Assembly (NCBI GenBank): GCA_049688735.1
Contig: JBAVLE010000402.1
Span: forward strand, 1 to 58,093
From: Candidatus Angelobacter sp.
Lineage (GTDB): Bacteria > Acidobacteriota > Terriglobia > Terriglobales > Acidobacteriaceae
DNA length: 58,093 nucleotides
Direction of reading: 5' to 3'
Shown here: positions 7,985 to 23,398 of the stretch, piece after piece
How the letters are laid out: every line of letters begins with the position of its first letter
How positions within the stretch are numbered: position 1 is the stretch's first letter
The notes under the pieces: model-generated
Told to the model about the DNA's origin: nothing
The model's database searches: none
Seen by the model: only the letters and a program-made list of their open reading frames with translations
Translations under genes and position numbers: made by a program

Positions 7985-8830
7985 CTACGCCGGCCACATC
8001 TCCAGCGCTGTTTTACTTAATATCTGTTCTTTGACTGGATCAGGCAGCGCCAGCGCCTGGAACTGATCCAGATTTTGCTTGATGTCGGGAATTCCCGGGC
8101 TAGGCCAGTCGGTGCCGAATAATGTTTTGTGCGCGATCTCTTCCAGACGCGGAAAATACTTCAGCAAAATCTTCGGTGGAATTCCGCTGATGTCCAAGTG
8201 TACGTTCTTGTGCCTGCGCAGCAGGAAGAACGCCGTCTGCATCCAGATGGGCCGGCCGCCATGGGCCATAAGAATTTTGAGCTTGGGAAAATCCACCGCC
8301 ACGTCATCCAGATAAATAGGGTCGCCAAACTTGTTCCGCGCCGCCGGAAAGATCGACGTTCCCGTGTGGATCATCACTGGAATTCCGTTCGCTTCCGCCG
8401 CCCGATAAATTGTCTCCAGTTCTTTCATCCCATTCAAATAGTCATTGGCATAAAGCAACTGGTGCGGCGGATGAATCTTAATGAGCCGAATTCCCAGGCG
8501 TACAAGGTTGTCCATTTCAGCCTGCACGTTCAGTGAATGCCGCGGATGCACGCTGCCACACGAGAGCAGCCGCTTCGGATTCTCCCTGCAGTAATCTGCC
8601 ACCCACGGATTCACGTCGTGGGTAAAGCCCATCGTCTCCGGCGCAACATAATTAATGAGCACCGCGCGCTCCACGCCAATGGAATCCATATACTTCAGCA
8701 GCGCCTTGGGCGACCGGCAATATTCCAGGATGTCCTCATAATGACCACGGGCCTTCTTCATCACCTCAAGCGGCCCGGCCTTGAACATTTCGACGGGTTG
8801 TATGTGGATGTGGCAGTCAGTGATCGTCAT
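7985..8830 (-). CDS. amidohydrolase-2 family metal-dependent hydrolase/decarboxylase
   Basis: N-terminal DCHIHI metal motif, later HTGTS and AHGG. TIM-barrel amidohydrolase pattern. Last gene of the Mo-enzyme transcription unit. Confidence 0.8.
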   Translation of the reverse strand: MTITDCHIHIQPVEMFKAGPLEVMKKARGHYEDILEYCRSPKALLKYMDSIGVERAVLINYVAPETMGFTHDVNPWVADYCRENPKRLLSCGSVHPRHSLNVQAEMDNLVRLGIRLIKIHPPHQLLYANDYLNGMKELETIYRAAEANGIPVMIHTGTSIFPAARNKFGDPIYLDDVAVDFPKLKILMAHGGRPIWMQTAFFLLRRHKNVHLDISGIPPKILLKYFPRLEEIAHKTLFGTDWPSPGIPDIKQNLDQFQALALPDPVKEQILSKTALEMWPA

Positions 8831-8939
8831 CAGTTTTTAGTAGTTAGTACTTGGTAATTAGAAAATTTCAAAAGTGTGAAGTGACCATTTCCTTCTCGAG
8901 ACTTAAGCTAAATACCAATTACTAAATACTAACTACTGG
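8831..8939. repeat. D-family AT-rich inverted array
   Basis: Arms agtagttagtacttggtaattag (8838-8861) and ctaaataccaattactaaatactaactact (8908-8937). Fills the gap between the FAD-subunit stop and the amidohydrolase start. Confidence 0.6.
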
Positions 8940-9913
8940 TTTGCCGCCATCACCGCCCGCTTCGCATACACCTTTACAATCTCTCGGCGATATTCCGGCG
9001 TAAGCCCTGAAGTGGTCAGCGGCTTGGCCATTTTTGCCGCCAGCTCGCCGACAACCGTCGCAACATGCTCATCAATCTGTTTGCCAATCAGCGCATTTTC
9101 CGCGCCTTTTACCAGCAGCGGCGCAGGATTGACGGCGGTAATCGCCACGCGCGCATTCTCCACCGGCCCGCCATTCTTCTTAAGCGCTACTGCGACCCCG
9201 GCCAGCGGATAGTCAATCGATCCGCGAATGCGCAGCTTCATGTAGCTGCCTTTCCAGCCTGCCGATTCTTCTGGCAGAAAGATGCGCGTCAGCATTTCAT
9301 TGCGCTCCAGCTTCATGCGCGCATCGCCCACGTTGGTATAGAAATCCTTCAGCGCCACGCGCCGCAGCCCCGCAGGCCCGGCAATCTCCACTTCCGCCCC
9401 CAGGCAGAGCAGCGCCGGAGGTGTGTCGCCAGAGAATGCCGCCCAGCAAAACTTGCCGCCCGGAGCCACGTGGCACAGGTCGCCATCTTTCTTGATGCAG
9501 AACCCGCACGACCGCCGCCACTGCAATGACTGGTTGTACCAGACGCAGCGTGTATCCAGACAGATGTTACCGCCCAGCGTTCCCATGTTGCGCAAAATGG
9601 GCGAGGCCACCGTCATCGCCGCCTCATGCAGCACGCGATAGCTGCGCCGTATGAACTCCGAATCTTCTATCGCGGAAAGCGGCGTGAGCGCTCCAATCTC
9701 CACGCCTGCGCCCGGACGCACATGGATTCCATGGATCTCTTCAATCCCGCGGATGTCCATCACGTATCCCGGCGTAAACAGCTTCTGCTTCATCGACGGC
9801 AACAGGTCCGTGCCGCCGGCGAGAATGGCCAGCTCATTGCCGTGGCGAGCAAGGTAATCGACAGCTTGCCGCAACGTGAGCGGGCGCAAAAATTTGAATG
9901 AAGGTAAGCTCAT
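8933..9913 (-). CDS. molybdopterin dehydrogenase FAD-binding subunit, HcrB-like with Cys-rich insertion
   Basis: ILAGGTDLLPSMK FAD-binding fold of the CoxM/XdhB family, plus the insertion NICLDTRCVWYNQSLQWRRSCGFCIKKDGDLCHVAPGGKFCW. Confidence 0.8.
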   Translation of the reverse strand: MSLPSFKFLRPLTLRQAVDYLARHGNELAILAGGTDLLPSMKQKLFTPGYVMDIRGIEEIHGIHVRPGAGVEIGALTPLSAIEDSEFIRRSYRVLHEAAMTVASPILRNMGTLGGNICLDTRCVWYNQSLQWRRSCGFCIKKDGDLCHVAPGGKFCWAAFSGDTPPALLCLGAEVEIAGPAGLRRVALKDFYTNVGDARMKLERNEMLTRIFLPEESAGWKGSYMKLRIRGSIDYPLAGVAVALKKNGGPVENARVAITAVNPAPLLVKGAENALIGKQIDEHVATVVGELAAKMAKPLTTSGLTPEYRREIVKVYAKRAVMAANQ

Positions 9914-9920
9914 GCTCTGA

Positions 9921-10060
9921 TTTGGTAATTGGGTGAATTAGTAATTTGGTGATTCAAGCTCGGGCTGAGACGCCTGGCGTACATTGCGCAGGTTTTCATT
10001 TACCAAATTACCAAATTACTCATTTACCAAATTCCTCCGTGTCTCCGTGCTTCCGTGGTA
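9921..10060. repeat. D-family inverted array (9921-9958 / 9997-10031) plus B-type triple 9-mer (10033-10060)
   Basis: tttggtaattgggtgaattagtaatttggtgattcaag ... catttaccaaattaccaaattactcatttaccaaa, then tcctccgtgtctccgtgcttccgtggta. Confidence 0.6.
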
Positions 10061-10068
10061 GGTGTTGT

Positions 10069-12684
10069 TCATTGCTCGTGCTGAGAACTCCGCCTCGAAG
10101 GATCTTCCTCATGCCTCTTCGGCCCTTTGCCTTTGAACCATAATGACCCGCCGTGCTCGCGGAACGTCATCGGCGATGAAGGATCGCTGCCGCGAGTCAT
10201 CTCAAGCGCTTTCTTTTCCGCATTCTTCGCTTTGATTGCTGCCAGCACGCGCTCCGGCGTGAACGGCGCTTCGCGCAGCCGCACTCCGACTGCATCATAG
10301 ATCGCATTCGCAATCGCCGGAATCGTCGCAGCCAGCGAGCCTTCGCTCGCTTCCTTCGCGCCAAAGGGCCCTTCCGGATCCACCGACTCCACAATAATGC
10401 ATTCCACCTCTGGCGACTCCGTTGCCGAAGGCGACTTGTACTCCAGCATGCCCGGATTCATCAGCAAGCCGTCTTTCCAAACCATTTCTTCCTGCATCGC
10501 CTGCCCCAGCCCCATCCATACAGAGCCGATCACCTGGCCTTCCACGGAAACGGGATTCAGCGCGCGTCCGCAATCATGCGCGGCCCAGATTTTGTGGACT
10601 GTTACCTCGCCGGTCTCTTCATCGACGGTCACTTCTGCTACCTGCGCCGAGTACGAATATGCCGGTGACGGTCCCACGCCCGCACCTTTGAACGTCCCGC
10701 CGCGCGCGTCTTTGGGCGGCGCGTAAGATCCCGTGCCGGTAAGCGCTCCCGTGAAGTCGATGGCCGAGACCACCGCTTCCTCAAAGCTCATGCTGTCCTT
10801 GGGACCTTCTTCCTTGCGCTTCTGCTGCAATGATCCGCGTAGCGTCTGCCCTTCCACGCGTCCGCTCACTTCCTTCACGTTCCCGCGCGGCGTATCGATC
10901 TTCTCCAGAATTTGCTCCGCATGCGCGCCATTTGTTGACGGCTCCGCCGTTCCGCGCTTCCACACGCGGTCATCGCGCATCATCACGTCTTCCGCCGCGC
11001 AGTTCATCTTCACCGCCGCGGCGGCAGCTATCTTTTTTCTCACGTCCTGTGCTGATCGCAAGGATGCATTGCCATTCATGAAGGTCACGCGGCTGGAATA
11101 CGATCCAATATCGATTGGGGTCAGGTCGGTATCGGCGGCGATCACGCGGATGCGTCCCAGCCGGATGCCCAGCACTTCAGCTACAATCTGCGCCACCATC
11201 GTGTCGGATCCTTGCCCAATATCCGACGCGCCTGTATATACCACTACGCCGCCATCGCGATCAATCTTGATGTTCACCGTGGAATGCGGCATATCCGACC
11301 GGATAATGCTGTTGGCCGCGCCGCTCACGTAGTGACTGCAGGCCATGCCCATGCCGCGTGCCGGAGGCAGCTTGCTCCGTCGCTCATGCCAGCCAGAGCG
11401 CGAAATTACTTTGTCAATGCATTCCGGCAAACCGTAACTTTGCACTCGAAGATTATTCACCGTAATGCATGGCGGCTTCAGCAGATTAATGCGCCGAATC
11501 TCCGCCGGATCGATATCCAGCTTTGCCGCAACCTCATCCAACTCGCTTTCAAATGCAAACCTGACATTCACGGTTCCATGTCCACGCATCGCGCCGCACG
11601 CCGGTTTGTTCGTCAGCACGCGATAGCCGTCATATTTGATATTCGGAATGTCATACAGCGCGCCCAGCAGCGCGCCGGAATAAAGGATCGTGACCACGCC
11701 GTAAGAGCAATACGCGCCGCCATCCTGAATCACTTTTGCCGCGACGGCAGTCAGGTGACCGTCTCTCTTTGCGCCGATCTTCATATCAATAATCGTGCGC
11801 GGCCGCCCGCGATGCGCCCAGAAAACTTCTTCACGGGAGTAGGTAATCTTTACCGGAGCTTTGGCTTTACGTGCTGCTACTGCCGCAATAATCTCCAGCG
11901 GAATCACTTCACTCTTGCCGCCAAAGCCGCCGCCCACCAGCGGCTTGATCACACGGATCTGCTGCATCGGTAGCTCCAGCACAATAGAGAGTTTGTGCTG
12001 CAAATAATACGGCACCTGCGTTGACGACCATACCGTCAGCCGACCCGGCTGCCCTGTCTGTGAATCAATTTCAAATTGTGCCAGCGTGCAATGCGGCTCC
12101 ATTGCCGCGTGCGTCACTTCGCCCGCAATGTACCGATGCTCCATCACCACGTCAGCCTCGGCAAAGCCCTTGTCCGGATCGCCAAACACGTGGTGATAAT
12201 CTTTTTCAATATTGTTGGGCCGCTGCGGATGTATCCATTCCTTCTCCGCCTTCATCGAGTCTTCCGGATCAAACCACGCCGGCAACTGCTCATACTCAAC
12301 TTCAATCAGCTCCAGCGCGCGCTCCGCAATCGTTTCTGACGTTGCAACGACGCACGCCACGTTGTCGCCCACATAACGCACTTTTTCGACGGCCAGCGCC
12401 GTCTCGTCATGCCCCACCGGCAGAATGCCGTATTTATTCGGCGCGTCCGGACCGGTCACCACGCACACCACGCCGTCGACCGCTTCCGCCTTCGACGTAT
12501 CGATCTTCTTGATCCGCGCGTGCGGATATGGCGAATGCAGGATCTTGCCCGTCAGCATTCCTGGGACTGACAGATCGTCAGTATACTTGCCCTGGCCCGT
12601 CGTCTTGCCCGCTGCATCGACGAGAGCAACGCGTTTTCCGATGATGGAAAAATCCGTCATTTTGTCTGGAACCTGCTCACGCAT
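10069..12684 (-). CDS. xanthine dehydrogenase-family molybdopterin-binding large subunit, HcrA-like
   Basis: Ald_Xan_dh-type sequence (GGGFGGKSE, GAMRGHG, ASEGSLAATIPAIANAI). Lies between the 2Fe-2S and FAD subunits. The C-terminal ~40 codons read into repeat sequence. An alternative ATG is at 12660. Confidence 0.85.
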   Translation of the reverse strand: MREQVPDKMTDFSIIGKRVALVDAAGKTTGQGKYTDDLSVPGMLTGKILHSPYPHARIKKIDTSKAEAVDGVVCVVTGPDAPNKYGILPVGHDETALAVEKVRYVGDNVACVVATSETIAERALELIEVEYEQLPAWFDPEDSMKAEKEWIHPQRPNNIEKDYHHVFGDPDKGFAEADVVMEHRYIAGEVTHAAMEPHCTLAQFEIDSQTGQPGRLTVWSSTQVPYYLQHKLSIVLELPMQQIRVIKPLVGGGFGGKSEVIPLEIIAAVAARKAKAPVKITYSREEVFWAHRGRPRTIIDMKIGAKRDGHLTAVAAKVIQDGGAYCSYGVVTILYSGALLGALYDIPNIKYDGYRVLTNKPACGAMRGHGTVNVRFAFESELDEVAAKLDIDPAEIRRINLLKPPCITVNNLRVQSYGLPECIDKVISRSGWHERRSKLPPARGMGMACSHYVSGAANSIIRSDMPHSTVNIKIDRDGGVVVYTGASDIGQGSDTMVAQIVAEVLGIRLGRIRVIAADTDLTPIDIGSYSSRVTFMNGNASLRSAQDVRKKIAAAAAVKMNCAAEDVMMRDDRVWKRGTAEPSTNGAHAEQILEKIDTPRGNVKEVSGRVEGQTLRGSLQQKRKEEGPKDSMSFEEAVVSAIDFTGALTGTGSYAPPKDARGGTFKGAGVGPSPAYSYSAQVAEVTVDEETGEVTVHKIWAAHDCGRALNPVSVEGQVIGSVWMGLGQAMQEEMVWKDGLLMNPGMLEYKSPSATESPEVECIIVESVDPEGPFGAKEASEGSLAATIPAIANAIYDAVGVRLREAPFTPERVLAAIKAKNAEKKALEMTRGSDPSSPMTFREHGGSLWFKGKGPKRHEEDPSRRSSQHEQ

Positions 12685-12703
12685 TCGTTGCGCTGTTTTC
12701 TAA

Positions 12704-12978
12704 AATCCCGAACCTGCGGTTTTTGCAGTGAGGGATCACTATTCCCTTCCATGCTGCTGTATCTGAACCCCCCAATCCCGCGCAGTGGGCGAGGGATCTC
12801 TAGTTTCGTCCAAAGCTCTCAACGTCGCTTACTCACTCTTACCATCCCAAATATTCTTGTTGCCAAAGAGTTCCCTCCCCTTCGACAAGCTCAGGGTCGG
12901 GATTTCAGAAAAAGCTCCTTTGCGCCCTTCGCGTGCTTTGCGGTAAGTCCTGTTTTCCGATCACCAGATCACCCGATC
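12704..12978. repeat. composite intergenic repeat block: A-family (12704-12905, second left end at 12773), B-type (12915-12946), C-type (12953-12978)
   Basis: aatcccgaac...gtgagggatcac...ttccctccccttcgacaagctcagggtcgggattt; then ctcctttgcgcccttcgcgtgctttgcggtaa; then ttttccgatcaccagatcacccgatc. The block also contains the stop codon of the 2Fe-2S gene. Confidence 0.65.
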
Positions 12979-13469
12979 TTATGCGCCTGCTCTGCCACTA
13001 TCGCCGCCTTGATTGCCTGGTACATCTGGGTGTATCCGGTGCAGCGACACAAATTTCCGCTCAGCGCGTGCTTAATCTCTTCTTCGCTTGGCTCAGGATT
13101 GCGGTCCAACAACGCCTTTACCGTCACCATGAAACCCGGCGTGCAAAATCCGCACTGCGCCCCGCCCCAGTCGCCATAAGCTTTCTGGATAGCCGCCAGC
13201 GCGCCATGATCGGCAATGCCTTCGACCGTAGTGATATCTGGTCCTTCTTGCTCATCGGCAGCACAGCTCATGGCCAGCATGGTGCAGCTCAGGGTTGGTA
13301 CTCCATCCACCAGCACCGTACATGCTCCGCATGACGAGTCGTCGCACCCGCGCTTTGATCCGGTGAATTCCAGTTCCTGACGCAGCACATCCAGCAGCAG
13401 TTCGCTCGGATCAATGGCCAGCTCGTGCTTGCGGCCGTTCACGCGGAGTTCTATGAGTTCTTTGCGCAT
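12969..13469 (-). CDS. (2Fe-2S)-binding small subunit of the molybdoenzyme, HcrC-like
   Basis: CDDSSCGACTV and CGFCTPG / CRCTGY, the two [2Fe-2S] motifs of the CoxS/XdhC-type subunit. ATG at 13469; the track start at 13475 is TTG. Confidence 0.87.
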   Translation of the reverse strand: MRKELIELRVNGRKHELAIDPSELLLDVLRQELEFTGSKRGCDDSSCGACTVLVDGVPTLSCTMLAMSCAADEQEGPDITTVEGIADHGALAAIQKAYGDWGGAQCGFCTPGFMVTVKALLDRNPEPSEEEIKHALSGNLCRCTGYTQMYQAIKAAIVAEQAHKIG

Positions 13470-13658
13470 GAGCAATTAGCAACTAGCAATTGGCAATTAG
13501 CCAACGCAGAGTCTCGCAGCCCTACCTTCAAGGATAATCCTTTGCAGACCGACGGCGACCGGCTTCGGCTGTTTTCCCCACCATCTGGATTCGAACGGAC
13601 GTTCGTTAAACTTATCCAACAAGAATACAACCTTGTAATGGGATTATCCACCCTGGCT

Positions 13659-14132
13659 TCATTTCAGGTTTTCCGGCGTCTTCACTGACCCGACGCACAC
13701 GTCGCCTTCTTTAATGCCCGTCAACCATTCACGCAACTCTTTACTGCGCCGGCCGGTCAATTCCGCTCTATAGCTGGCATGGCACATCAAATAGACCGAA
13801 CCATAGATAGCGCTCTCATTCTCATCTTTTGCAGCGGCGTATTTCATCGCAATTTGCGCATCCCGATATTTTAACCATGTCCTTTGCGCTTCGCGCAGAC
13901 GTTGAATGAATACGGGCTGGTCTGCATATTTCTTCAGAATCAACTGATATACCCGATTGAGCTCACGATCGGCGCCCGCAGCATCTGCTCCGCCACATTC
14001 GTTTAATTCAGATTGAGTTTTCGCCTTGTCGTAGCAACTTTTTGACGTTGTCGACGGCTGCGCCATCGCGCCCAACGTCATCAGGCTAAGTGAGACAAAC
14101 AATGCCAGCGTTTTGATCCATCTGTGATTCAT
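13659..14132 (-). CDS. LprI-family (DUF1311) secreted protein
   Basis: Signal peptide, then SELNECGGADAAGADRELNRVYQLIL and AQRTWLKYRDAQ, the characteristic DUF1311 pattern. Confidence 0.75.
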   Translation of the reverse strand: MNHRWIKTLALFVSLSLMTLGAMAQPSTTSKSCYDKAKTQSELNECGGADAAGADRELNRVYQLILKKYADQPVFIQRLREAQRTWLKYRDAQIAMKYAAAKDENESAIYGSVYLMCHASYRAELTGRRSKELREWLTGIKEGDVCVGSVKTPENLK

Positions 14133-14168
14133 ACATTACCTGTCGACGAAAAAATCCCGCCCGTTTGC

Positions 14169-15098
14169 TCAATATCCATAGTCAGTTCGCGCCGCATACG
14201 CATGCTGCTTCACGCCCAGATCTTCCACTCTCGCCGTTCCTAGCTGCTTCGCATACTCGCTGCGATCAGCCACTCCATTCACCCATTTCTGTGCCCACGC
14301 GTTGAAGTCGCCCTGTGTTTTGGTTTCCGCATGATATTGCTGAAAGAACGCGTCGTCTCTCTTGTTATATCCCTGCACGGGTGAAGGATGCGCGCCAAGC
14401 GGGCACTCCACCACCGCCGTCACCAGAAAGCCTGGGATCACCGTCCGGTTCGGATCGCTGGCAATCACGTCTTCAGCCACGATCTCTTCCGCGCAGACAA
14501 TCACCTTTTTTGCCGCGCGGACGCCTTCCAGCATCACACCAAAATTTCCCCAGCAATGCGCGTTACCGTGTTTGTCGGCGCGTTGCAGGTGGACAATCGC
14601 TACATCCGGCACTAGCGCGCGCACCGCCAGCAGAGTCTCTTTGGGCTCAAAAGGAGAAATGATCTGATAAAAAAAATGATTGCCCTTCGGCACGTCGCTT
14701 CCCATGGCGGTCCGCGTCGGCAGAAACGGCACACCCATCCCCCCGGCCTGCAGCGCCAGCGCCAGCGTGAAGTTCGTCATATTGCAGACGCGCAGCTGGG
14801 TGCCAGGCTTGCCAGGATTCTCTACCTCAGTGGCGTGGCGGAAGTTATACGCCGATCCCATCATTACATTTCCCACCCAGGCCGCTACTACATCTTCAAC
14901 GCAGCCAGCGCCAATCATCTGGTCAAACAGAATGTCGGAGATTGGCCCAATCAGCCGCAGCCCGCGCTTCTTCTGCCGCATGATCTCGTGTCCGGCAGCA
15001 AACGGAATCATCTGTTCCAGCTGCAGGCCCAACGCCACGCTCGTGCCGTCCAGAACGTGCTCTGCAATCGCCTGCCGCATTGTCATCACTTTGGACAT
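14169..15098 (-). CDS. CoA-transferase subunit A (glutaconate CoA-transferase-like)
   Basis: MSKVMTMRQAIAEHVLDGTSVALG and the ~309 aa size fit GctA/AtoD-type alpha subunits. The track N-extension (15099-15197) is repeat-derived and is trimmed. Confidence 0.8.
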   Translation of the reverse strand: MSKVMTMRQAIAEHVLDGTSVALGLQLEQMIPFAAGHEIMRQKKRGLRLIGPISDILFDQMIGAGCVEDVVAAWVGNVMMGSAYNFRHATEVENPGKPGTQLRVCNMTNFTLALALQAGGMGVPFLPTRTAMGSDVPKGNHFFYQIISPFEPKETLLAVRALVPDVAIVHLQRADKHGNAHCWGNFGVMLEGVRAAKKVIVCAEEIVAEDVIASDPNRTVIPGFLVTAVVECPLGAHPSPVQGYNKRDDAFFQQYHAETKTQGDFNAWAQKWVNGVADRSEYAKQLGTARVEDLGVKQHAYAARTDYGY

Positions 15099-15107
15099 AT
15101 TTACGAA

Positions 15108-15145
15108 GTCCCGAAAGCGCGGTTTTGGCCGTGAGGGATCCCTAC
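15108..15145. repeat. A-family half element (left end only)
   Basis: gtcccgaaagcgcggttttggccgtgagggatccctac, 9 nt upstream of the CoA-transferase A start codon. Confidence 0.5.
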
Positions 15146-15292: not shown

Positions 15293-15898
15293 ATGAAGCC
15301 TATAGCTCAACTTATCATTCTCGTTCTGGGCAGCTTTGCAGCGGTGTTCGCCCAAACGGCCGCAAGCCAGCCTGAGTCGCTGGGTGACGCCGCGCGTGCT
15401 CTCAAAAGTGAAAATAAAAGCAAGCCAGCTGCCGCCACATTTTCCAACGAGTCTGAGTTGCTGCGCAAGCCTCTCATACCGGACGTGACCGCAATCGGAC
15501 GCGATAATATCGATGCAATCGTGAAAAGTATCGATGATTACCGCAGCTCACATAATTTGCAGGAAACCGAAGCGGCCGTCCACGACTGGTACAGCCGTCA
15601 AGTTTCCCTGCTCACAAACGCCATCCAGGAAAACCACCGTATTGAGGGGCGTGACCATCAAGAAGCCCGGGTAGGCAGCACCAGCGACGTGCGACCGAAT
15701 AACCATGATGAATATGTAAACTTGCGGCATATCGAGCGGGATTCCCGCAAAGCAGAACAGCGGCAGATTAAACTAAACCAGCGTCTTGTAATCCGTATCC
15801 AGCAGGACTTCACACATATCCGGCCACAAATGTTGGATAAATATGGCATGAAGATCGACTGGTTTACCATTTGTGAAAATGCCGGCTGCACCTACTGA
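15293..15898 (+). CDS. secreted hypothetical protein
   Basis: Clear signal peptide MKPIAQLIILVLGSFAAVFAQ. The only plus-strand gene inside the minus-strand island. No recognisable family. Confidence 0.6.
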   Translation: MKPIAQLIILVLGSFAAVFAQTAASQPESLGDAARALKSENKSKPAAATFSNESELLRKPLIPDVTAIGRDNIDAIVKSIDDYRSSHNLQETEAAVHDWYSRQVSLLTNAIQENHRIEGRDHQEARVGSTSDVRPNNHDEYVNLRHIERDSRKAEQRQIKLNQRLVIRIQQDFTHIRPQMLDKYGMKIDWFTICENAGCTY

Positions 15899-16050: not shown

Positions 16051-16845
16051 CTACTTTCCTTTCCACATCGGCTTCCGCTTCTCCATCCAAGCCGTAATTC
16101 CCTCTTTCACGTCTTCTGTCCGCATCAGTTCTTCCAGATAAATCTTTTCTGCCCTCGCCATGCCTTTGTCCAGATGCATGGAATCCCACGCATAAAATGC
16201 CTTTTTGGCCACAGCCAGTGCCGCCGGGCTCAGCTTCAGCAGATGATCGACCGTCCGCTGGACCGCCTGCTGCAACCCGCCTTCAGGATGCGACTCATTC
16301 GCCAGCCCCCATGCGGCTGCTTCTTCGCCGCTGAAAATCCGACCGGTAAATACTAAGTCCGCCGCGCGCTTCTGCCCCACCAGTGCGGCCAGCGCCGTGC
16401 ACGCAACGGGCGGATAGCATCCCAGCGTGATCTCGGGAAATCCCCATTTCGCGTCCGGCGCGGTAAAGCACATGTCGCACACCATGGCCAGCTCCGCGCC
16501 GCCGCCCAGGCAGACGCCACGCACTTCGGCAATCGTGATCTTGGAAAACCTGGTCAGCGCAAGAATCACGCTATGAAATTTCTGCAGCATGGTCTGCACC
16601 AGGTCAGGTGTGTGTACCGCAACATCGACCCCGGCTGAGAATGCTCGCGGCTCGCCAGTGAAGATCACGACAGAGACTTCACTACGTTGCTCCAACTCCC
16701 GCAGCGCTGCCAGGATCTCGTCCATCATCTGGAAATCGATCACGTTTAATGGCGGATGGGTAAACATTATGCGAGCAAGCTGGCCCTGGATTTCAAAGCT
16801 GAGACGCTTCGTAATTTGCGATGGTAAGTTCATCTCTTTCTTCAA
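16051..16845 (-). CDS. enoyl-CoA hydratase/isomerase (crotonase) family protein
   Basis: FSAGVDV ... GVCLGGGAELAMVCD ... FPEITLG, the crotonase oxyanion-hole motifs. The track start is TTG at 16845. ATG at 16833 is more likely. Confidence 0.85.
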   Translation of the reverse strand: MKKEMNLPSQITKRLSFEIQGQLARIMFTHPPLNVIDFQMMDEILAALRELEQRSEVSVVIFTGEPRAFSAGVDVAVHTPDLVQTMLQKFHSVILALTRFSKITIAEVRGVCLGGGAELAMVCDMCFTAPDAKWGFPEITLGCYPPVACTALAALVGQKRAADLVFTGRIFSGEEAAAWGLANESHPEGGLQQAVQRTVDHLLKLSPAALAVAKKAFYAWDSMHLDKGMARAEKIYLEELMRTEDVKEGITAWMEKRKPMWKGK

Positions 16846-16987
16846 TCCCGAACCCGCCGCTTTTCAATTTCGGCAATTTCGGCGATTTTGGCAATTTTGG
16901 CAATTTTGGCAGTTCTGGAAATTCTCCGTGCCTCCGCGTCTCCGGCGGTGAGCTTTTGATTTTCCGATCACCGGATCACCCGATTCC
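16844..16987. repeat. intergenic region built entirely of repeat modules: A-end, 9-bp tandem array, B-type, C-type
   Basis: aatcccgaacccgccgc (16844-16860); 6-7 tandem CAATTT(T/C)GG units (16866-16919); ttctccgtgcctccgcgtctccggcggtga (16922-16951); tttccgatcaccggatcacccgattcc (16961-16987). Confidence 0.7.
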
Positions 16988-16988
16988 T

Positions 16989-17741
16989 CTAGCTGGTCCA
17001 AAATCCTTTGGTATCGTACTCCCTGATCGCCTTCAACTCCGCCGCGTTTGGTTCCGGCGTCGGCTTCGCATCATCCGCAACTTTCAGCTTCCATCCAGTA
17101 TTGGCCAGCACATCATCAACACTCACGCCCGGATGATAAGTAGAAAGAAATGCTTCGGCGTTATCGTCAAAGCGCAGCACACATTTGCTGGTAATCACCG
17201 CCGAGGGACCCCCGCGTGGAAGTCCTACGCGCTTGCGCCATCCCGCACCATTACCGTTTCCGGGGCTGGTAATGTAATTCACTTTTTCCGGCAGGCGATG
17301 CTTCCCATGCTCCAGCAATGACACAAACCGCTGCGCCATTGACGCAATATCGCACGCACCGCCCGATCCCGGCAGCCGCACCATGCCGTTCTTTCCCTGA
17401 ACCTGCGTCGAATTCAGGTTGCCGTAGCGGTCCACCTCGGCCGCCCCCAGAAATCCCAGATTGACTCGCCCCGATTGCAGCAGGCTCATCACCTCCAGCA
17501 TGCCCAGGCATTGCGTTGCGCCTTTGATGTTTGGCGGATCGGCCATGGTATAGATCAACTCCGGCGATGGAGTGGAGCGGATCACGCCGTTCTCGAATAG
17601 CCCGATGGCGTTCGGCGCATGCGTCTTCTTCGCTACCACAAACGCAATCAGCGGCAGCCGCATCCCGACAAAGACGACCTCGCCGTCTTTGATCTCGCGC
17701 GCCGCCGCTACCACCATGAGTTCGTTGAGTGTGTATTGCAT
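16989..17741 (-). CDS. CoA-transferase subunit B (glutaconate CoA-transferase-like)
   Basis: MQYTLNELMVVAAAREIKDGEVVFVG and GSGGACD fit GctB/AtoA-type beta subunits, about 250 aa. Confidence 0.8.
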   Translation of the reverse strand: MQYTLNELMVVAAAREIKDGEVVFVGMRLPLIAFVVAKKTHAPNAIGLFENGVIRSTPSPELIYTMADPPNIKGATQCLGMLEVMSLLQSGRVNLGFLGAAEVDRYGNLNSTQVQGKNGMVRLPGSGGACDIASMAQRFVSLLEHGKHRLPEKVNYITSPGNGNGAGWRKRVGLPRGGPSAVITSKCVLRFDDNAEAFLSTYHPGVSVDDVLANTGWKLKVADDAKPTPEPNAAELKAIREYDTKGFWTS

Positions 17742-17749
17742 TTATGTGT

Positions 17750-17780
17750 AATCCCGAGCGCCAGCGAGGGAACCCTATAG
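17750..17780. repeat. A-family half element (left end only)
   Basis: aatcccgagcgccagcgagggaaccctatag, 8 nt upstream of the CoA-transferase B start. Confidence 0.5.
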
Positions 17781-17890
17781 CAATGAGGCTGCCGCAGCTG
17801 CCCCTGTGTGTATGTTCCAGCAGTGATCGCGAAAACCTAGTCGATCGATATTCATTGCCGGAAATTAGGATGCGAGCCTGACAATTTTTG

Positions 17891-18145
17891 CTACAGAGCT
17901 CGGCAGTTTATATCGATAAAATAATCCTGTGGATAGAGATAGTCTTCTCCCGATTCATCTATGATCCTGCGCATGCCGGCCTTCTCCGCTGCGCGATCCG
18001 CCAACACAGGATAGAGCTTTCGCAGCTCCAGGGATGCAGGATAATCCTCATTCTTGATGCAAACCATGTATTGCACCCTGCCTCTTTTCTTAATCGAGGA
18101 GCCGTTTGATTTTGATTTCTTTTCTGCCGATGCCATGTGCTTCAT
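17891..18145 (-). CDS. small hypothetical protein (84 aa)
   Basis: Conserved-looking C-terminal part IKNEDYPASLELRKLYPVLADRAAEKAGMRRIIDESGEDYLYPQDYF. Lies in a locally AT-rich segment. The start may be an internal Met. Confidence 0.5.
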   Translation of the reverse strand: MKHMASAEKKSKSNGSSIKKRGRVQYMVCIKNEDYPASLELRKLYPVLADRAAEKAGMRRIIDESGEDYLYPQDYFIDINCRAL

Positions 18146-18328
18146 ACCAGTTTCAGCTTTGCTATCCTACCATCGGGTAAGCGAGTGTCAGCGCAGCCTT
18201 TCAGTTTTTTCCAGCGGCCTCGCCCGTAGAATTTGGTGAGCCGCTTTCTGTCTCGCAGCGATCTTCCAGTTGCAATCACCTCAACGGCCGTAACCGGACC
18301 CGCAATCTCTCTCTCTCTTCATTCAAGC

Positions 18329-18356
18329 TTGCAATCATAAAACAACAGGGCTGCCG
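18329..18356 (-). terminator. rho-independent terminator after the BoxB-like gene
   Basis: The minus strand reads ggggctgcgtcggcagccc followed by tgttgtttt. Confidence 0.6.
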
Positions 18357-18407
18357 ACGCAGCCCCGTTCTTGTGTTTAGGCTAATTACTAAGTGCTAAT
18401 TGCTGCC

Positions 18408-19589
18408 CTACTGCACCGCATTCAACGCGCTCTTCCGTACCTCGCCGATCGTGAGCAGCGGGTCTTTCGCGCCGGTCCTGGGCGCAATCCATTTCTTTTC
18501 TGACCCGATGATGTCCATCAGCAGCTTCTTGTCCGCCGCCGTGGGCAGCCAGGTTTCTAGCTGCTGCTTGTATTCTTTTTCTTCCATTGGCTCGCCAGTA
18601 TGCGGATGGAACATCTGGCCCTTCCAGCGTCCAATCATGCGATTGAATTTGATGTCCGGGCAATAAAGCTCCGTGCTCCCCGGACGCTGTCCGGCGCTGA
18701 TGCGTCTGACCAACTGCACACATTCATCGCGATATAAGTGTCGGTTATAGTCATTCAAATTATCCAGATCAGGCGCAGTTTCGTTTTTCAGTTCGTCGTA
18801 GCGGCCCTTCAATCCCCATGTGTAAGCCCAGTGTGCGGAAGAAGAATGATCGGTACCGAACAAATCGTAAGCGCTGGAAATCCACTTGTTGAGATATTTC
18901 TGCATCAGCCAGCCGGGGACCACGCCGGCCTCAGCAATGCGCGCCAGTCCGGTATTGCCGGTACCCATGTGAAATGCTTCTTCACGCAGCATGTAACTCA
19001 TGGACCGTCCCAGCGGCGCAAATGCCGAATACTTCAGCATCTGGAGTTGAAACTTGCCGTCGCGATCGACAAAGTCAGTGAAGGCAAAAAAGTCCAGCCA
19101 GTTATCGCACTCTTCGTTAAACGATCCCAGCAATCGCTTGTTTTCGTACGCTTTGCGCTCCAGCATCTTCTGCGCTTCCACCTTGCCGGTGGTGCCAAAG
19201 TGGTCAATCAGCAGCGCGCACATCTGCCAGCCGTGGCGCATCTCTTCAATCATCACCCTTGTAAGCGATGAGCGGTCATAGTCCGTAGGCGCGGTCTCAA
19301 ACAGCCAGCGCTGCTGCTCCACGCTGGCAAACTCCGTATCACCCTGGTACACAATCAGGTTCATCAACGCGTCGCGCATGTTCTGCGTCGGAATCTGGCG
19401 GACGTTCTCCCATTTGTTGCGGCCTTTGTAATAGCCAAAGGTAATTTCGTCCGTCTCAATCGCGCCATACAGCGTATCGAATTTAAAATTGCGAATGTCA
19501 TTGTGATTGACGCCGATTTCCTCGCGCCACTCCTTGAACAGTCCTTCCCAATCGCTAAACGATCCAATCTTCATCACTTTTCCCGGCAT
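18408..19589 (-). CDS. BoxB-like diiron acyl-CoA oxygenase (benzoyl-CoA 2,3-epoxidase subunit B family)
   Basis: YQGDTEFASVEQQRW, MIEEMRHGWQ (ExxH), FTDFVDRDGKFQLQML and MLREEAFHMGTG (ExxH) resemble BoxB. The ligand pattern is E...ExxH...D...ExxH. Confidence 0.78.
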   Translation of the reverse strand: MPGKVMKIGSFSDWEGLFKEWREEIGVNHNDIRNFKFDTLYGAIETDEITFGYYKGRNKWENVRQIPTQNMRDALMNLIVYQGDTEFASVEQQRWLFETAPTDYDRSSLTRVMIEEMRHGWQMCALLIDHFGTTGKVEAQKMLERKAYENKRLLGSFNEECDNWLDFFAFTDFVDRDGKFQLQMLKYSAFAPLGRSMSYMLREEAFHMGTGNTGLARIAEAGVVPGWLMQKYLNKWISSAYDLFGTDHSSSAHWAYTWGLKGRYDELKNETAPDLDNLNDYNRHLYRDECVQLVRRISAGQRPGSTELYCPDIKFNRMIGRWKGQMFHPHTGEPMEEKEYKQQLETWLPTAADKKLLMDIIGSEKKWIAPRTGAKDPLLTIGEVRKSALNAVQ

Positions 19590-19625
19590 GATTCACCCCT
19601 AAACTCTTGTATAAACTTCCTTGTG

Positions 19626-20084
19626 CTATCGATATCCCATCTCTGGATCAAGCCGCACCTTGCTTCTTACAAACATTCCGCTTCCGCGTGCGATCTCTTC
19701 TTCCTGATCGTTGTACAAAACTGATTCCGCCAGAAACGACGATCCGCCGCCGCTCACCACTTTTCCCACTGCGCGAATCACGCCCGCCGAAACCGGCGCC
19801 AGCATGTACAAGTTGAAGTTGCTGGTAAGAACAAAACGGTCTTCCACCAGCGAGCTCACCGCAAAAAAAGCAGCGTCGTCCAGGCTTTTGAAATAAACAG
19901 CGCCGTGGGCGGCCCGGGCAGCATGGAAAAATCGGCTATCCACGTTGACCTTGATTTCAGCAGTTCCTTGCCCTATCTGGATCGAAGGCTTGAAGAATTC
20001 ATTGATGGGCGCAGCCAGGTACATGCGTTCCAGCTTGCGATAATGCTCTTCGCTAGTCATCGAAATTGCAGGCTGTGCTGACAT
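19626..20084 (-). CDS. PaaI-family hotdog-fold thioesterase
   Basis: About 150 aa. The pattern HGGAVYFKSLDDAAFFA ... G.VVSGG...F.AES fits PaaI/4HBT-type thioesterases. Confidence 0.72.
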   Translation of the reverse strand: MSAQPAISMTSEEHYRKLERMYLAAPINEFFKPSIQIGQGTAEIKVNVDSRFFHAARAAHGAVYFKSLDDAAFFAVSSLVEDRFVLTSNFNLYMLAPVSAGVIRAVGKVVSGGGSSFLAESVLYNDQEEEIARGSGMFVRSKVRLDPEMGYR

Positions 20085-20174
20085 AATTGCTACCCGCCTC
20101 CCATTTGGCGGCCCAGGCTAACTGTTCAACCAGCTTTGGCCAACGGCTAAAAGCCAAGAGCTAAGAGCCGGCTC

Positions 20175-21641
20175 TTACAGGTTCATCCAAACCGATTTCA
20201 ACTCCGTGTAATGCTCAATCGCGTGCATGCCCAATTCGCGCCCAAAACCAGACTGCTTGTAGCCGCCAAAGGGCATTGCAGCGTCCATCACTCCATAGGT
20301 GTTGATCCACACCGTTCCTGCTTTCAGTCGCCGCGAGAGCTGATGCGCTTTCTTGATGTCATTCGTCCAGACTGCCGCAGCAAGGCCGTAAACATTCTTG
20401 TTCGCCAGCTCGGCCACTTGCTCAATGTCGTCAAACGTGAGCGTGGCCAGAACCGGGCCAAAAATTTCTTCCTGGGCAATCTTCATGTCGTTGTTCACGC
20501 CGCCGAAAATCGTCGGCTCAATGAAATATCCATGATCGCCGTTCACCTGCGCCCGCTTGCCGCCGGCCAGCAGCTTTGCGCCTTCGCTCTTCCCAGCCTC
20601 AATGTAGCCCAGCACCGTCTGCATCTGCTTTTCGCTGACAATTGCACCTAAACGTGTCTTGGGATCCAGCGGATCGCCCAACCGGATTTTCTTTGACGAC
20701 TCAACCAGTTTGGTCACAAATTCGTCTTCTGCCTTCTTCTCGATGAACAAGCGCGAGCCCGCACAGCAGACCTCGCCCTTACCGTAGAAGATCCCATTCA
20801 AGGCGCCTTTCACGGCGGAATCCATTTGCGAATCGGCAAAAACAATGTTGGGGGACTTGCCGCCCAGCTCCAGCGTCACACGCTTCAGCGTGTCGGCAGA
20901 GCTGCGCATGATCTCTTTACCCACCGATGTCGATCCAGTGAACGCGATCTTGTCCACGCCAGGATGCTTTACCAGCGCAGCGCCGGTCTCCGGTCCGCCA
21001 GTTACGATATTCAGCACACCAGCAGGCAGTCCGGCCTCAAGCGCGAGTTCACCGAAGCGTAGCGCCGTAAGCGGCGTCTGCTCCGCCGGTTTCAAAATCA
21101 CGCAGTTGCCGCATGCCAGCGCCGGCCCCAGCTTCCAGCTGGCCAGCAGCAGCGGGAAATTCCACGCAACAATCGCGCCCACCACGCCAACAGGATCGCG
21201 CAGCGTGTAAGTAAAAGCATTGCTAAAGGTGTTCACAGTCTCGCCGTGGATTTTCGTCGCCCATCCCGCGTAGTAGCGGAACACGTCCGCAACCATCGGC
21301 ATATCCACATAACGCGACTCAAAAATTGGCTTGCCGTTGTTCAGCGTTTCCAACTCGGCCAGCTCTTCAATGTTCTTTTCGATCAGGTCAGCAATGCGCC
21401 ATAGCACCTTGCCGCGTTCGCTGGCGGACATCTTGCGCCACGGACTGTTCACGTCGTCAAATGCCTTGCGCGCCGCCGTCACTGCCTGGTCAACGCCGCT
21501 GCCGCCGCCTTCGGCCACCTGCGTCAACACGTCTCCAGTCGCCGGGTTGAAGGTATCGAAGGACTTTCCTGAACCTTCCGACCATTTGCCGTCAATCAGC
21601 AGTTTGCCGGGAGAAACTTTTGCTTTCGTTGCTGTGATCAT
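20175..21641 (-). CDS. NAD(P)-dependent aldehyde dehydrogenase
   Basis: VAWNFPLL, ELGGKSP and GEVCCAGSR, the catalytic Glu/Cys motifs. Start taken at MITATKAKV. The 30-codon track extension is repeat sequence. Confidence 0.9.
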   Translation of the reverse strand: MITATKAKVSPGKLLIDGKWSEGSGKSFDTFNPATGDVLTQVAEGGGSGVDQAVTAARKAFDDVNSPWRKMSASERGKVLWRIADLIEKNIEELAELETLNNGKPIFESRYVDMPMVADVFRYYAGWATKIHGETVNTFSNAFTYTLRDPVGVVGAIVAWNFPLLLASWKLGPALACGNCVILKPAEQTPLTALRFGELALEAGLPAGVLNIVTGGPETGAALVKHPGVDKIAFTGSTSVGKEIMRSSADTLKRVTLELGGKSPNIVFADSQMDSAVKGALNGIFYGKGEVCCAGSRLFIEKKAEDEFVTKLVESSKKIRLGDPLDPKTRLGAIVSEKQMQTVLGYIEAGKSEGAKLLAGGKRAQVNGDHGYFIEPTIFGGVNNDMKIAQEEIFGPVLATLTFDDIEQVAELANKNVYGLAAAVWTNDIKKAHQLSRRLKAGTVWINTYGVMDAAMPFGGYKQSGFGRELGMHAIEHYTELKSVWMNL

Positions 21642-21660
21642 TGTCTTAGCCTTTTTCTGA

Positions 21661-21793
21661 AATCCCGAATCCCGCGCAGCGGGTGAGGGACCCCTATTCC
21701 CTTCCATGCACTTTAAGTTGCACGATATCAATTCTTGAAATACTTACCTGCTATAGGGATCCCTGCCCGTTCGCTTCGCTCAGGCTCGGGATT
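21661..21793. repeat. A-family palindromic MITE/REP-like element
   Basis: aatcccgaatcccgcgcagcgggtgagggacccctattcc ... ctatagggatccctgcccgttcgcttcgctcaggctcgggatt. Confidence 0.7.
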
Positions 21794-21800
21794 TCAAGTC

Positions 21801-22610
21801 TTACTTTGCTTTGAAAGTAGCCGGCCGCTTCTCAACGTACGCAGCCAAGCCTTCTTTGGCATCTTCACTGGCGAACAAGCGTTGTTGCAGTTCGCGCTCC
21901 ACGGCCAGGGCGGACTCCATTGGGATCTCCCAGCCGGTCTGCACGGACCGCTTGATGTTGCCCACGGCCTTCGCAGCCTTGTTCGGCGGCGTGAACTGGC
22001 GCGCATATTCCATGATGTTTTCCATAAAGCCATCACGCTCGTAAATATCGTTGATGATGCCCATCTCTTTGGCTTCTTCAAAGGTGAAGGTGTTGCCGGT
22101 CACCATCAGTTCAATGGCTTTGCTCTTGCCCACCATGCGGCTCAGGCGCTGTGTTCCGCCGGTGCCGGGCAGCACGCCCAGGTTGATTTCCGGCAGCCCG
22201 ATCTTTCCGGAATCACGGCGCGCAATACGAATGTCCGCCGCCATGGCAATTTCCAATCCACCGCCCACACAGTGGCCATTGATCGCGGCGATCACCAGCT
22301 TGGGGGTGTGCTCCAGGCGCAGCAGCGTCTCATTGGCATGCAGGCAGAAATAATATTTAAAGGTGGGATCGACGGTGGAAAGCATTTTGATGTTGGCGCC
22401 GGCGGAGAAAAATTTCTCGCCTGAACCGGTCAGCAGCAGCACGTAAACGTCGTTGTCCATGCGCGCCTTCAGAATGCATTCATCCAGTTGCCGGTTCATT
22501 TCATAGGTGTAGGTATTTGCCGGCGGATCGTTCAATTCAATCACGGCGATGCCGTCTTCAACGCGATAGTTCACCAGGGTCTTGGTTTCGGTTGCTGTGG
22601 TTGTAGCCAT
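21801..22610 (-). CDS. enoyl-CoA hydratase/isomerase (crotonase) family protein
   Basis: FFSAGANI ... HCVGGGLEIAMAAD ... LPEINLGVLPGTGGTQR. Confidence 0.85.
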   Translation of the reverse strand: MATTTATETKTLVNYRVEDGIAVIELNDPPANTYTYEMNRQLDECILKARMDNDVYVLLLTGSGEKFFSAGANIKMLSTVDPTFKYYFCLHANETLLRLEHTPKLVIAAINGHCVGGGLEIAMAADIRIARRDSGKIGLPEINLGVLPGTGGTQRLSRMVGKSKAIELMVTGNTFTFEEAKEMGIINDIYERDGFMENIMEYARQFTPPNKAAKAVGNIKRSVQTGWEIPMESALAVERELQQRLFASEDAKEGLAAYVEKRPATFKAK

Positions 22611-22683
22611 GGTTCAAAAGCTCCTTATCAATTTTTCCGAATCTTAATTTCCTGATCGCTGCAACTTCTCATCTCCTGGCTGG

Positions 22684-23382
22684 TCAGGCATGTGCCTTGG
22701 AAGTTTTTCGTTTTGCTCTGCCCGGATTCAAAACACCGCGCAAAAACAGGTTGCTCATTTCCTCGGCCATGGCTCCGGCGTCCAGGTCCACGCGCGGGTT
22801 ATGCCAGGTGTAAATCCAATTAATCATCCCAAACAATCCCAGTACAGCCAGGCGTCCGGAAAATTGTAGCCCCTTTTCGCGCCGCAAATCTTCCAGCAGA
22901 TCCAGGCAGATTTTGTAGTACTCGCGTTTGATCGCCCTGATCTCAGTGCCCCGGCCATTCTTGAGCGTTTCATCCTCATGCGTCAGCACCTTCATGGCTT
23001 CTTTGTTTGCCAGAAAGTATTCCAGATGGTTTTCGATGAAGATACGGACACGCTCTTCCGCATCACTGGACTCTTTCAGCCGTTCCTGCAACAGCGCGAT
23101 GATCGTCTTAAAAGTATGTTTCTGGATGAGGTAAAGCAGGTCTTCCTTGGACTCAAAATAATGGTACAGACCGGCCAACGACATTCCGGCAGCGCGCGAA
23201 AGATCGCGCATGGAAGCGCCCTCATACCCTTTTTCGCAGAAGATATGCGCCGCATGGTGCAACAATTTTGAGAGCCTGCGGTCAAATCGAGAATCGGCTG
23301 CCTCGTCATTGTTTGCAGAACGCCCCTTGCGACCAATAAATGGTTCGCTGGACAAGCGGCTTTCAACATTCTGCAGCGCCAT
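22684..23382 (-). CDS. TetR/AcrR-family transcriptional regulator
   Basis: HTH region FCEKGYEGASMRDLSRAAGMSLAGLYHYFESKEDLL. First gene of the co-oriented catabolic unit. Confidence 0.85.
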   Translation of the reverse strand: MALQNVESRLSSEPFIGRKGRSANNDEAADSRFDRRLSKLLHHAAHIFCEKGYEGASMRDLSRAAGMSLAGLYHYFESKEDLLYLIQKHTFKTIIALLQERLKESSDAEERVRIFIENHLEYFLANKEAMKVLTHEDETLKNGRGTEIRAIKREYYKICLDLLEDLRREKGLQFSGRLAVLGLFGMINWIYTWHNPRVDLDAGAMAEEMSNLFLRGVLNPGRAKRKTSKAHA

Positions 23383-23398
23383 AAAAAGATTAACTTAC

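Follow-up and report, generated by a model that had tools for sequence, protein, structure and literature searches.

A predicted TetR-controlled operon of Candidatus Angelobacter combining genes for an HcrCAB-like molybdenum enzyme and a short BoxB-like diiron protein

The window analysed here is a stretch of 58,093 nt from Candidatus Angelobacter (contig JBAVLE010000402.1), with gene calls taken from an open reading frame (ORF) listing and from Pfam and NCBIfam scans. Between positions 7985 and 23382 it carries a minus-strand gene cluster that brings together a TetR-family repressor, a short BoxB-like diiron protein and a three-subunit molybdenum (Mo) enzyme of the 4-hydroxybenzoyl-CoA reductase (HCR) type. 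The cluster is read here, tentatively and at slightly less than an even chance, as a PaaR-type, TetR-repressed catabolic operon for aromatic acyl-CoA esters in which peripheral modules have been added to a conserved core. The best interpretation of its function is a low-oxygen, CoA-dependent route leading from para-hydroxybenzoate through benzoyl-CoA to a ring epoxide, these being the substrates predicted. The presence of 4-hydroxybenzoyl-CoA reductase is taken to indicate strictly anaerobic aromatic catabolism, and that of BoxB to indicate the aerobic hybrid pathway. The cluster joins known kinds of system, namely the Box/Paa hybrid pathways and HCR. A first-pass annotation of this DNA had not recognised the combination as a described unit, and no description was found in full-text literature searches, some of them aimed at this gene combination, or in the supplement of the Sulfotelmatobacter transcriptome paper.

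All genes listed in that annotation were confirmed in place and on the minus strand by the ORF listing and the Pfam and NCBIfam scans. The first cluster gene encodes the TetR-family repressor (22684–23382; TetR_N and TetR_C_24 domains in Pfam) and is followed by the crotonase gene ECH1 (21801–22610), the BoxB-like gene (18408–19589), a second crotonase gene, ECH2 (16051–16845), and, further downstream, an amidohydrolase-2 gene (Amh2; 7985–8830). Interspersed with these are genes for an aldehyde dehydrogenase (ALDH; 20175–21641), the beta (16989–17741) and alpha (14169–15098) subunits of a class I CoA-transferase, and the 2Fe-2S (gamma; 12969–13469), molybdopterin (alpha; 10069–12684) and FAD (beta; 8933–9913) subunits of the Mo enzyme.

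Conservation of this arrangement was assessed by tblastn of every window protein against related loci, taken as genome stretches with 10 kb on each side and labelled L001 onwards, of which 67 had enough flank. The 80 best genome loci were all from metagenome-assembled genomes (MAGs) of Terriglobales, with the BoxB-like protein showing 85–97% identity in Ca. Angelobacter, which places the window in this genus, and approximately 75% in Ca. Sulfotelmatobacter and Korobacter-like MAGs. Gene order and strand were identical in 67/67 loci, which is far beyond chance, and colinearity held down to approximately 74% BoxB-like identity despite many local insertions. Overall, Ca. Angelobacter, Ca. Sulfotelmatobacter and their relatives share the operon across no fewer than 50 species-level genomes. 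ECH1 was present in all 67 loci, TetR in 63/67 and ECH2 in 61/67, with the Mo genes found in at least 50/67, Amh2 in at least 41/67, ALDH in 34/67 and the CoA-transferase in 30/67. The counts for the Mo genes and Amh2 are lower bounds because long clusters run past the 10-kb flank. From these counts the core was defined as TetR-ECH1-BoxB-like-ECH2-Amh2, with three fixed slots within it holding ALDH, the CoA-transferase subunits and hcrCAB. Where the cluster is compact, for example in L003, successive cluster genes overlap or lie no more than approximately 90 bp apart, and the Mo genes are placed between ECH2 and Amh2, both of them core genes, with stop and start codons that overlap. The proposed synteny of the Mo and BoxB-like modules in relatives is thus borne out in at least 50 of the 67 loci, and one operator sequence is common to both modules in the window.

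This operator is a palindrome, CGAACGTTCGTTCG, identified as an exact pattern match at positions 23399–23412; it lies 17 bp upstream of the start codon of tetR, and a promoter-like site is found just upstream of the palindrome. This site resembles a sigma-70 promoter (TTGACC, an 18-nt spacer and CATAAT; 23420–23449, minus strand) and agrees with the consensus at 10/12 positions, being a consensus match only. A second operator copy, CGAACGGACGTTCG, was detected by pattern match at 13592–13605, in the gap upstream of the 2Fe-2S gene. There were two matches to CNAACGNNCGTTNG in the 58-kb window, compared with approximately 0.06 expected. An operator of the form CGAACGNNCGTTCG was located 3–70 bp upstream of tetR in approximately 75/80 loci, and a second operator preceding the Mo genes was also present in L022 and L025, loci which lack one or both CoA-transferase genes or carry an LprI insertion.

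The effector of PaaR, the TetR repressor of the paa operon in Thermus thermophilus, is phenylacetyl-CoA. The operator consensus of this repressor is CNAACGNNCGTTNG (PMC6651687), which the window operators fit exactly, and by its operator sequence the TetR protein of the cluster is PaaR-like. Its best PDB match was 3VPR, a TetR-family regulator, and it was 20% identical to a Thermus plasmid TetR encoded at a TetR-ECH-ALDH locus. Two loci of a non-acidobacterial lineage, L088 and L089, have CGAACGTTCGTTCG at position 9225, 42 bp upstream of a tetR gene which is followed by a stand-alone short BoxB-like gene; a TetR behind this operator in an unrelated bacterial lineage is 37% identical to that of the window, and the product of the short BoxB-like gene paired with it is 52% identical. 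It should also be noted that in L089 a type II CRISPR-Cas9 locus is inserted beside this TetR/BoxB-like pair. The operator shared between the Mo and BoxB-like modules indicates, as sequence evidence, that the two are co-regulated, and predicts that both are governed by the regulator type of an aryl-CoA (phenylacetyl-CoA) catabolic operon.

The alpha subunit of the Mo enzyme (871 aa) scored 1010.4 bits against TIGR03194, the NCBIfam equivalog for HcrA, where the cut-off is 994.55 and the next family, XdhA, reached 569. Among PDB entries the HcrA of Thauera aromatica (1RM6_A) gave 799 bits and the next entry 275, with approximately 50% identity over 763 aligned aa. The suggestion that the Mo subunit groups with HcrA was confirmed by these results. 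The closest other characterised relative of 4-hydroxybenzoyl-CoA reductase, the dehydroxylase Ucdh, acts on another substrate and has 33% identity to it (PMC12771579). The HcrB-like beta subunit matched 1RM6_B with 230 bits and contains a Cys-rich insertion, in which Cys122, 138, 146 and 155 of 1RM6_B align to Cys123, 139, 147 and 156 of the window protein; these four residues are invariant in 46 orthologs. In T. aromatica HcrB they are presumably, from the published structure, the [4Fe-4S] ligands, and this cofactor site is intact. A 4Fe-4S insert in the FAD subunit is reportedly also found in the oxidative enzyme PaoABC and does not fix the direction of the reaction; the Cys loop is for this reason necessary but not sufficient for HCR. 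HCR was the top-scoring NCBIfam family for both the beta and gamma subunits, TIGR03195 and TIGR03193 respectively.

Two additional elements were found in the alpha subunit, each kept in 50/50 orthologs. One is an insert of approximately 25 aa at about residues 605–630 ending in VSGRVEGQxLRGSLQQKRKEEGPKD, and the other is a C-terminal tail of approximately 45 aa (around residues 833–865) containing FREHGGSLxFKGKGPxRH. By homology the enzyme would act in the direction of reductive dehydroxylation, with 4-hydroxybenzoyl-CoA as its predicted substrate. In 28 related loci a gene for a 107-aa rhodanese lies directly before the 2Fe-2S gene (e.g., L005, 14111–14437), which might have a link to Mo cofactor sulfuration.

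The BoxB-like protein is a putative aryl-CoA epoxidase of 393 aa, approximately 80 residues below the length of canonical BoxB (462–475 aa). It matched TIGR03225 with 239.5 bits (cut-off 499.1) and 3PER with 190 bits, compared with only 39 bits for PaaA. With residue roles of Azoarcus evansii BoxB taken from a study of the BoxB mechanism (PMC5489048), it was found that all six Fe ligands (Glu120, Glu150, His153, Asp211, Glu240 and His243) are kept, as E86, E116, H119, D175, E204 and H207, and that they are invariant in 73 orthologs. Six of the seven benzoyl-contact residues are also kept (Q116, T119, S123, F193, F203 and F206 in A. evansii numbering). The position of Thr210 is occupied by Val in all orthologs and that of Phe206 by Tyr in 56/73. 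In a neighbour-joining tree, for which canonical BoxB of the Mycetohabitans boxCBA cluster and PaaA and PaaC of Escherichia coli served as references, the short BoxB-like proteins formed a sister grade to the clade of 462–475-aa BoxB proteins. The outcome for the earlier assignment of this protein to the BoxB type is ambiguous: BoxB is its nearest relative and the diiron site is intact, but it belongs to a sister family, with approximately 40% identity and 239 bits against a cut-off of 499.

The short family is large, the search with the BoxB-like protein returning 4071 matches at E<1e-10. At least 590 species-level genomes match alignment patterns of the short family, which the canonical BoxB motifs examined do not fit. 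Distant members (38–52% identical) occur outside Acidobacteriota, either alone or with TetR only. These solitary relatives suggest that the link to the Mo enzyme is specific to Acidobacteriota and that neither BoxA nor BoxC is a fixed partner of the diiron family anywhere. An AlphaFold model of the BoxB-like protein, built from 23 close homologs, had a pLDDT of 46 and was unusable.

ECH1 (269 aa; assigned by Pfam and NCBIfam) is the most conserved protein of the cluster, with 83–96% identity across loci. Its best PDB match was 2PPY, and it is 32% identical to both PaaF and PaaG and 33% identical to the N-terminal domain of BoxC. ECH2 (264 aa; assigned by profile scans) had dienoyl-CoA hydratase as its second-best NCBIfam match, at 159 bits and below cut-off. 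Each of the two keeps both catalytic Glu residues and is nearest to ordinary hydratases. The idea of ECH1 and ECH2 as a split BoxC was rejected, as both are single-domain proteins near ordinary hydratases and only ECH1 shows a generic likeness to the BoxC N-terminus; the likeness of the crotonases to BoxC comes down to generic similarity (33–38% over 100–207 aa for ECH1). A role for ECH2 as hydroxycinnamoyl-CoA hydratase-lyase, which would lead from coumarate through 4-hydroxybenzaldehyde to 4-hydroxybenzoate, is remote, as this family gave 124 bits against a cut-off of 276 and was not the best match.

The ALDH is a predicted NAD(P)-dependent enzyme of 488 aa counted from an internal ATG (PF00171, 608 bits). 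Its best NCBIfam matches were BADH and StyD, all below their cut-offs, and it is 23% identical to the ALDH domain of PaaZ; BoxD was not among the best 25 of its 43 NCBIfam matches. It is thus an enzyme of the general BADH/StyD-type class, and this part of the Box analogy was not upheld. A second ALDH of the window, distant from the cluster (55611–57041, plus strand), has 27% identity to the PaaZ domain. Between the ALDH and BoxB-like genes lies an accessory gene for a hotdog-fold thioesterase of the 4HBT superfamily (19626–20084, minus strand; profile scans). It had been called PaaI-type, which holds at the superfamily level only, since the protein falls below the TIGR00369 cut-off and gave no blastp match to E. 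coli PaaI. It was found in just 3/67 loci and the CoA-transferase is optional at 30/67, so neither can be upheld as part of an analogy with the Box pathway.

The best PDB match of CoA-transferase A (GctA-like) was glutaconate CoA-transferase (1POI_A, 138 bits, aligned from residue 35), and CoA-transferase B (GctB-like; profile scans) keeps the catalytic glutamate of the ENG motif, here FENG. This glutamate sets CoA-transferases apart from their non-transferase relatives IpdAB and AibAB, both of which were among the PDB matches. The enzyme is therefore probably, from its sequence, a true transferase activating a free acid. A function as ring-cleaving hydrolase (IpdAB) or decarboxylase (AibAB) was considered; retention of the ENG glutamate in the beta subunit and the optional nature of the module make it unlikely.

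Searches by tblastn with reference proteins detected no BoxA, BoxC, benzoate-CoA ligase or PaaE, PaaJ, PaaH or PaaK in the window, in agreement with the first-pass report that BoxA, full-length BoxC and an aryl-CoA ligase are absent from it. Likewise, no BoxA, BoxC or BCL-family aryl-CoA ligase was found within 10 kb in approximately 90 related loci. A box cluster of Sedimenticola, described with boxB and boxC but not boxA, is nevertheless expressed with O2 (PMC4453571), which shows that a missing boxA is not fatal to the reading of the present cluster as an aryl-CoA operon.

Amh2, the last core gene, encodes a protein of 281 aa (PF04909) with an N-terminal HxH motif. A predicted structure of moderate quality (pLDDT 66, pTM 0.74), which supports statements at the family level only, gave Foldseek matches to 3IRS, the LigJ hydratase and dihydroxybenzoate decarboxylases. 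The protein may accordingly be described as a metal-dependent hydrolase, hydratase or decarboxylase, for which ring or lactone hydrolysis, hydration and decarboxylation are all candidate roles. In four other phyla, relatives of Amh2 were found next to genes for boxB-boxC, paaA and ligases of the BCL family. In Nonomuraea gerenzanensis (L096, 9766–14691) canonical boxB and boxC are directly followed by a relative with 32% identity, and no BoxA match was found near this boxB-boxC pair. In Haladaptatus a relative (42%) faces paaA-paaD-paaB-paaC, and in Gemmatirosa one (49%) follows genes for a PaaG-like crotonase and a BCL-family ligase. A Thermus plasmid carries a further relative (29%) after ALDH-ligase-thiolase genes; the same plasmid also bears TetR-ECH-ALDH genes, its ECH being 41% identical to ECH1. 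The amidohydrolase-2 family may belong to Box and Paa clusters on a regular basis, a membership so far unrecognised.

Taken together, the genes suggest a pathway whose steps, in the order that we infer, would be as follows. The glutaconate-CoA-transferase-type enzyme, as a peripheral module, would convert a free acid to its CoA ester, and the HcrCAB-type Mo enzyme would strip the para-hydroxyl from 4-hydroxybenzoyl-CoA or a similar para-hydroxyaryl-CoA, yielding the substrate of the oxygenase. The short BoxB-type diiron enzyme, acting independently of BoxA, would then act with O2 on the ring of benzoyl-CoA or of an aryl-CoA very close to it. The non-aromatic product could be isomerised, hydrated and hydrolysed by the two crotonases and Amh2 in place of BoxC, and where ALDH is present it would oxidise the resulting aldehyde. 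The most specific form of this proposal is an unrecognised low-oxygen para-hydroxybenzoate route with an oxygen-compatible HCR-type dehydroxylase, a BoxA-independent short BoxB, Amh2 and crotonases replacing BoxC, and the FAD/Fe-S chain of the Mo enzyme perhaps serving as electron partner of the diiron protein; in all its parts together this form is doubtful. The first-pass annotation had proposed a route from Hcr to Box, which is partly supported: the HcrA grouping and the synteny hold, but the diiron protein is not a canonical BoxB, a BoxD-type ALDH is absent and the crotonases resemble BoxC only in a general way.

Several observations weigh against the proposed pathway. The beta and gamma subunits of the Mo enzyme fall below their equivalog cut-offs (320.8 bits against 404.55 for TIGR03195 and 176 against 257.8 for TIGR03193). 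The conserved insert and tail of the alpha subunit are absent from T. aromatica HcrA, so that the acidobacterial enzyme forms a subfamily of its own within the HCR clade. Oxygen sensitivity and the use of reduced ferredoxin are reported for the T. aromatica reductase (PMC12771579), whereas here an enzyme of this type is encoded in one operon with an O2-dependent enzyme. At least 5–8 loci are without the Mo genes, from which it follows that the core can do without the Mo step. The BoxB-like protein has only approximately 40% identity to BoxB, and its solitary distant relatives suggest that the family may function apart from ring catabolism. Finally, no electron donor gene is present at the cluster, and a diiron-protein reductase, ligase, thiolase or hydroxyacyl-CoA dehydrogenase was not found within 10 kb in any locus.

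Another view, which we consider unlikely, is that the short protein is not an epoxidase for the ring of a growth substrate but acts on another acyl-CoA, or has a protective or deoxygenating function under a TetR sensor, with the cluster degrading a CoA ester other than benzoyl-CoA. Such a role would suit the distant lineages in which the BoxB-like gene stands alone or has only the same TetR and operator beside it, crotonase, Mo and ligase genes being absent, and also the absence of BoxA and BoxC from every locus searched, the change of Thr210 to Val in all orthologs and the unusually high conservation of the protein (74–97%), which suggests a housekeeping-like role; density functional theory (DFT) work has in addition proposed that BoxB is able to deoxygenate the epoxide (PMC5489048). 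However, the benzoyl-contact residues and Gln116 are conserved, the operator equals that of the aryl-CoA-responsive PaaR, Amh2 partners occur in Box and Paa clusters elsewhere, and inserted into this operon is an enzyme of the HCR type, for which benzoyl-CoA is the known product. It is quite improbable, in turn, that the Mo enzyme is oxidative and hydroxylates an aryl- or heteroaryl-CoA with water in the manner of 2-furoyl-CoA dehydrogenase. The cluster would then encode a furoate- or furfural-like or other heteroaromatic route with CoA-transferase, ALDH, an ECH-type hydrolase and Amh2, the last acting as a lactone or enol hydrolase, and the BoxB-like protein would serve a second substrate. 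The combination of ALDH, CoA activation, three-subunit Mo enzyme, crotonase and hydrolase does resemble the furoate (Hmf/Trudgill) pathway, the hosts are soil polysaccharide degraders, and the alpha subunit has clade-specific inserts. Against this, the alpha subunit is approximately 50% identical to HcrA and passes the equivalog cut-off, where even Ucdh has only 33% identity to 4-hydroxybenzoyl-CoA reductase; the best plasmid-borne matches of the xanthine dehydrogenase (XDH) family reach just 36%, and the BoxB-like protein, rather than the Mo enzyme, makes up the invariant core. The furoate pathway is kept as a rival and is not favoured.

The two modules could also be mere neighbours that belong to unrelated pathways, their linkage having been inherited within one order. 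All 80 of the best loci being from Terriglobales, the colinearity must partly reflect shared ancestry; in addition, the Mo genes are absent from some loci, and in the window a terminator-like hairpin and inserted genes part the two modules. Yet the same operator precedes both parts in the window, L022 and L025, the compact loci place the Mo genes between ECH2 and Amh2 with stop/start overlaps, and the order is kept down to approximately 74% BoxB-like identity in spite of many insertions, so that coincidental neighbourhood is very improbable.

The favoured aryl-CoA operon can be compared with four known systems. It shares with the Box pathway (BoxA/BoxB epoxidase, BoxC dihydrolase and BoxD dehydrogenase; A. 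evansii and Burkholderia/Mycetohabitans) the dependence on CoA, a diiron protein of the BoxB branch, crotonase-family and ALDH partners, and a logic that suits low or fluctuating O2. It differs in the length of the diiron protein (393 aa here, approximately 475 aa there), in the absence of BoxA, BoxC, a BoxD-type ALDH and benzoate-CoA ligase from the window and approximately 90 loci, in having Amh2 and two single-domain crotonases in place of BoxC, and in its TetR regulator. With HcrCAB of T. aromatica (1RM6) and HbaBCD of Rhodopseudomonas palustris it has in common the three subunits, the C-A-B gene order, the Cys loop of the beta subunit and a gamma subunit that bears two [2Fe-2S] clusters. 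However, the genes here lie inside an O2-dependent operon of Acidobacteriota and not in the regulon of an anaerobic benzoyl-CoA reductase, and no ligase, ferredoxin or ferredoxin-reducing enzyme was found near the Mo genes.

As in the Paa pathway with PaaR of T. thermophilus HB8, the TetR gene opens the operon and precedes that of the oxygenase, the operator matches CNAACGNNCGTTNG, and crotonase and ALDH genes stand alone without a PaaZ fusion. The oxygenase, in contrast, is BoxB-like (approximately 21% identical to PaaA) and not PaaABCDE, and none of PaaB, C, D, E, H, J or K is present here. The 2-furoyl-CoA dehydrogenase pathway (HmfABCDE) is similar in that CoA activation, an upstream ALDH and a crotonase-type hydrolase are combined with an XDH-family enzyme of three subunits whose substrate is an aromatic acyl-CoA. 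The Hmf enzyme is, however, oxidative and without a diiron partner, whereas the Mo subunit here is HcrA-like, the comparison being one of pathway components.

If read in this way, one repressor-controlled operon would span the usual divide between anaerobic and aerobic aromatic catabolism, and it would be widespread in abundant bacteria of soil and peat. The conserved joint operon suggests that metagenome annotations which score its genes as separate "anaerobic" and "aerobic" potential would be misleading. Among the compounds that plants and Sphagnum contribute to acidic soils and peat, para-hydroxylated phenolic acids are major ones, and carriers of the operon may remove them at the cost of one O2 per ring, which bears on the persistence of phenolics at oxic-anoxic interfaces. 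For enzymology, the cluster provides three targets amenable to study: short BoxB proteins that form a family without BoxA, HCR-type enzymes of a subfamily marked by conserved additional elements, and an Amh2 family associated with Box/Paa clusters in five phyla.

The window cluster is interrupted by features that are strain-level insertions, namely a terminator, small ORFs, a plus-strand ORF and an LprI-like gene. The terminator reported downstream of the BoxB-like gene was recovered as a strong hairpin of 11 pairs with a T-run (18369–18344, minus strand); compact loci such as L003 do without it, the following gene there beginning 12 bp beyond the BoxB-like gene. Three inserted genes had been missing from the earlier gene list. 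Two are small minus-strand ORFs of 45 and 84 aa with a 4-bp overlap (17891–18279) and no Pfam match, located past the hairpin and ahead of CoA-transferase B, which were found in only two related loci, L007 and L013; this pair is a strain-specific insertion outside the pathway and could be toxin-antitoxin-like. The third is an ORF of 201 aa whose N-terminus resembles a signal peptide and which matched no family, located on the plus strand (15293–15898) in the 853-bp gap between ECH2 and CoA-transferase A, so that the island is not wholly co-oriented as had been described. Its sole homolog among the related loci is in L011 (73%), and it too lies outside the pathway. The LprI-like gene (13659–14132, minus strand; PF07007) is common to the window and L025 only among the related loci, and as an insertion it likewise lies outside the pathway.

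The remaining genes of the window have housekeeping functions (glycine cleavage, RND efflux, chemotaxis and the second ALDH), and no Rfam families or tRNA were found in it. Divergent from the cluster lies a ferritin/rubrerythrin-like gene (26498–27148, plus strand). Between the two are genes for a DUF5666 protein (24213–25619, plus strand) and a SnoaL-like ORF (23210–23884, plus strand), the latter being uncertain as a real gene because it overlaps the start region of tetR. The ferritin/rubrerythrin-like neighbour is also present in at least nine loci (L001, L003, L009, L012, L014, L015, L021, L024 and L027).

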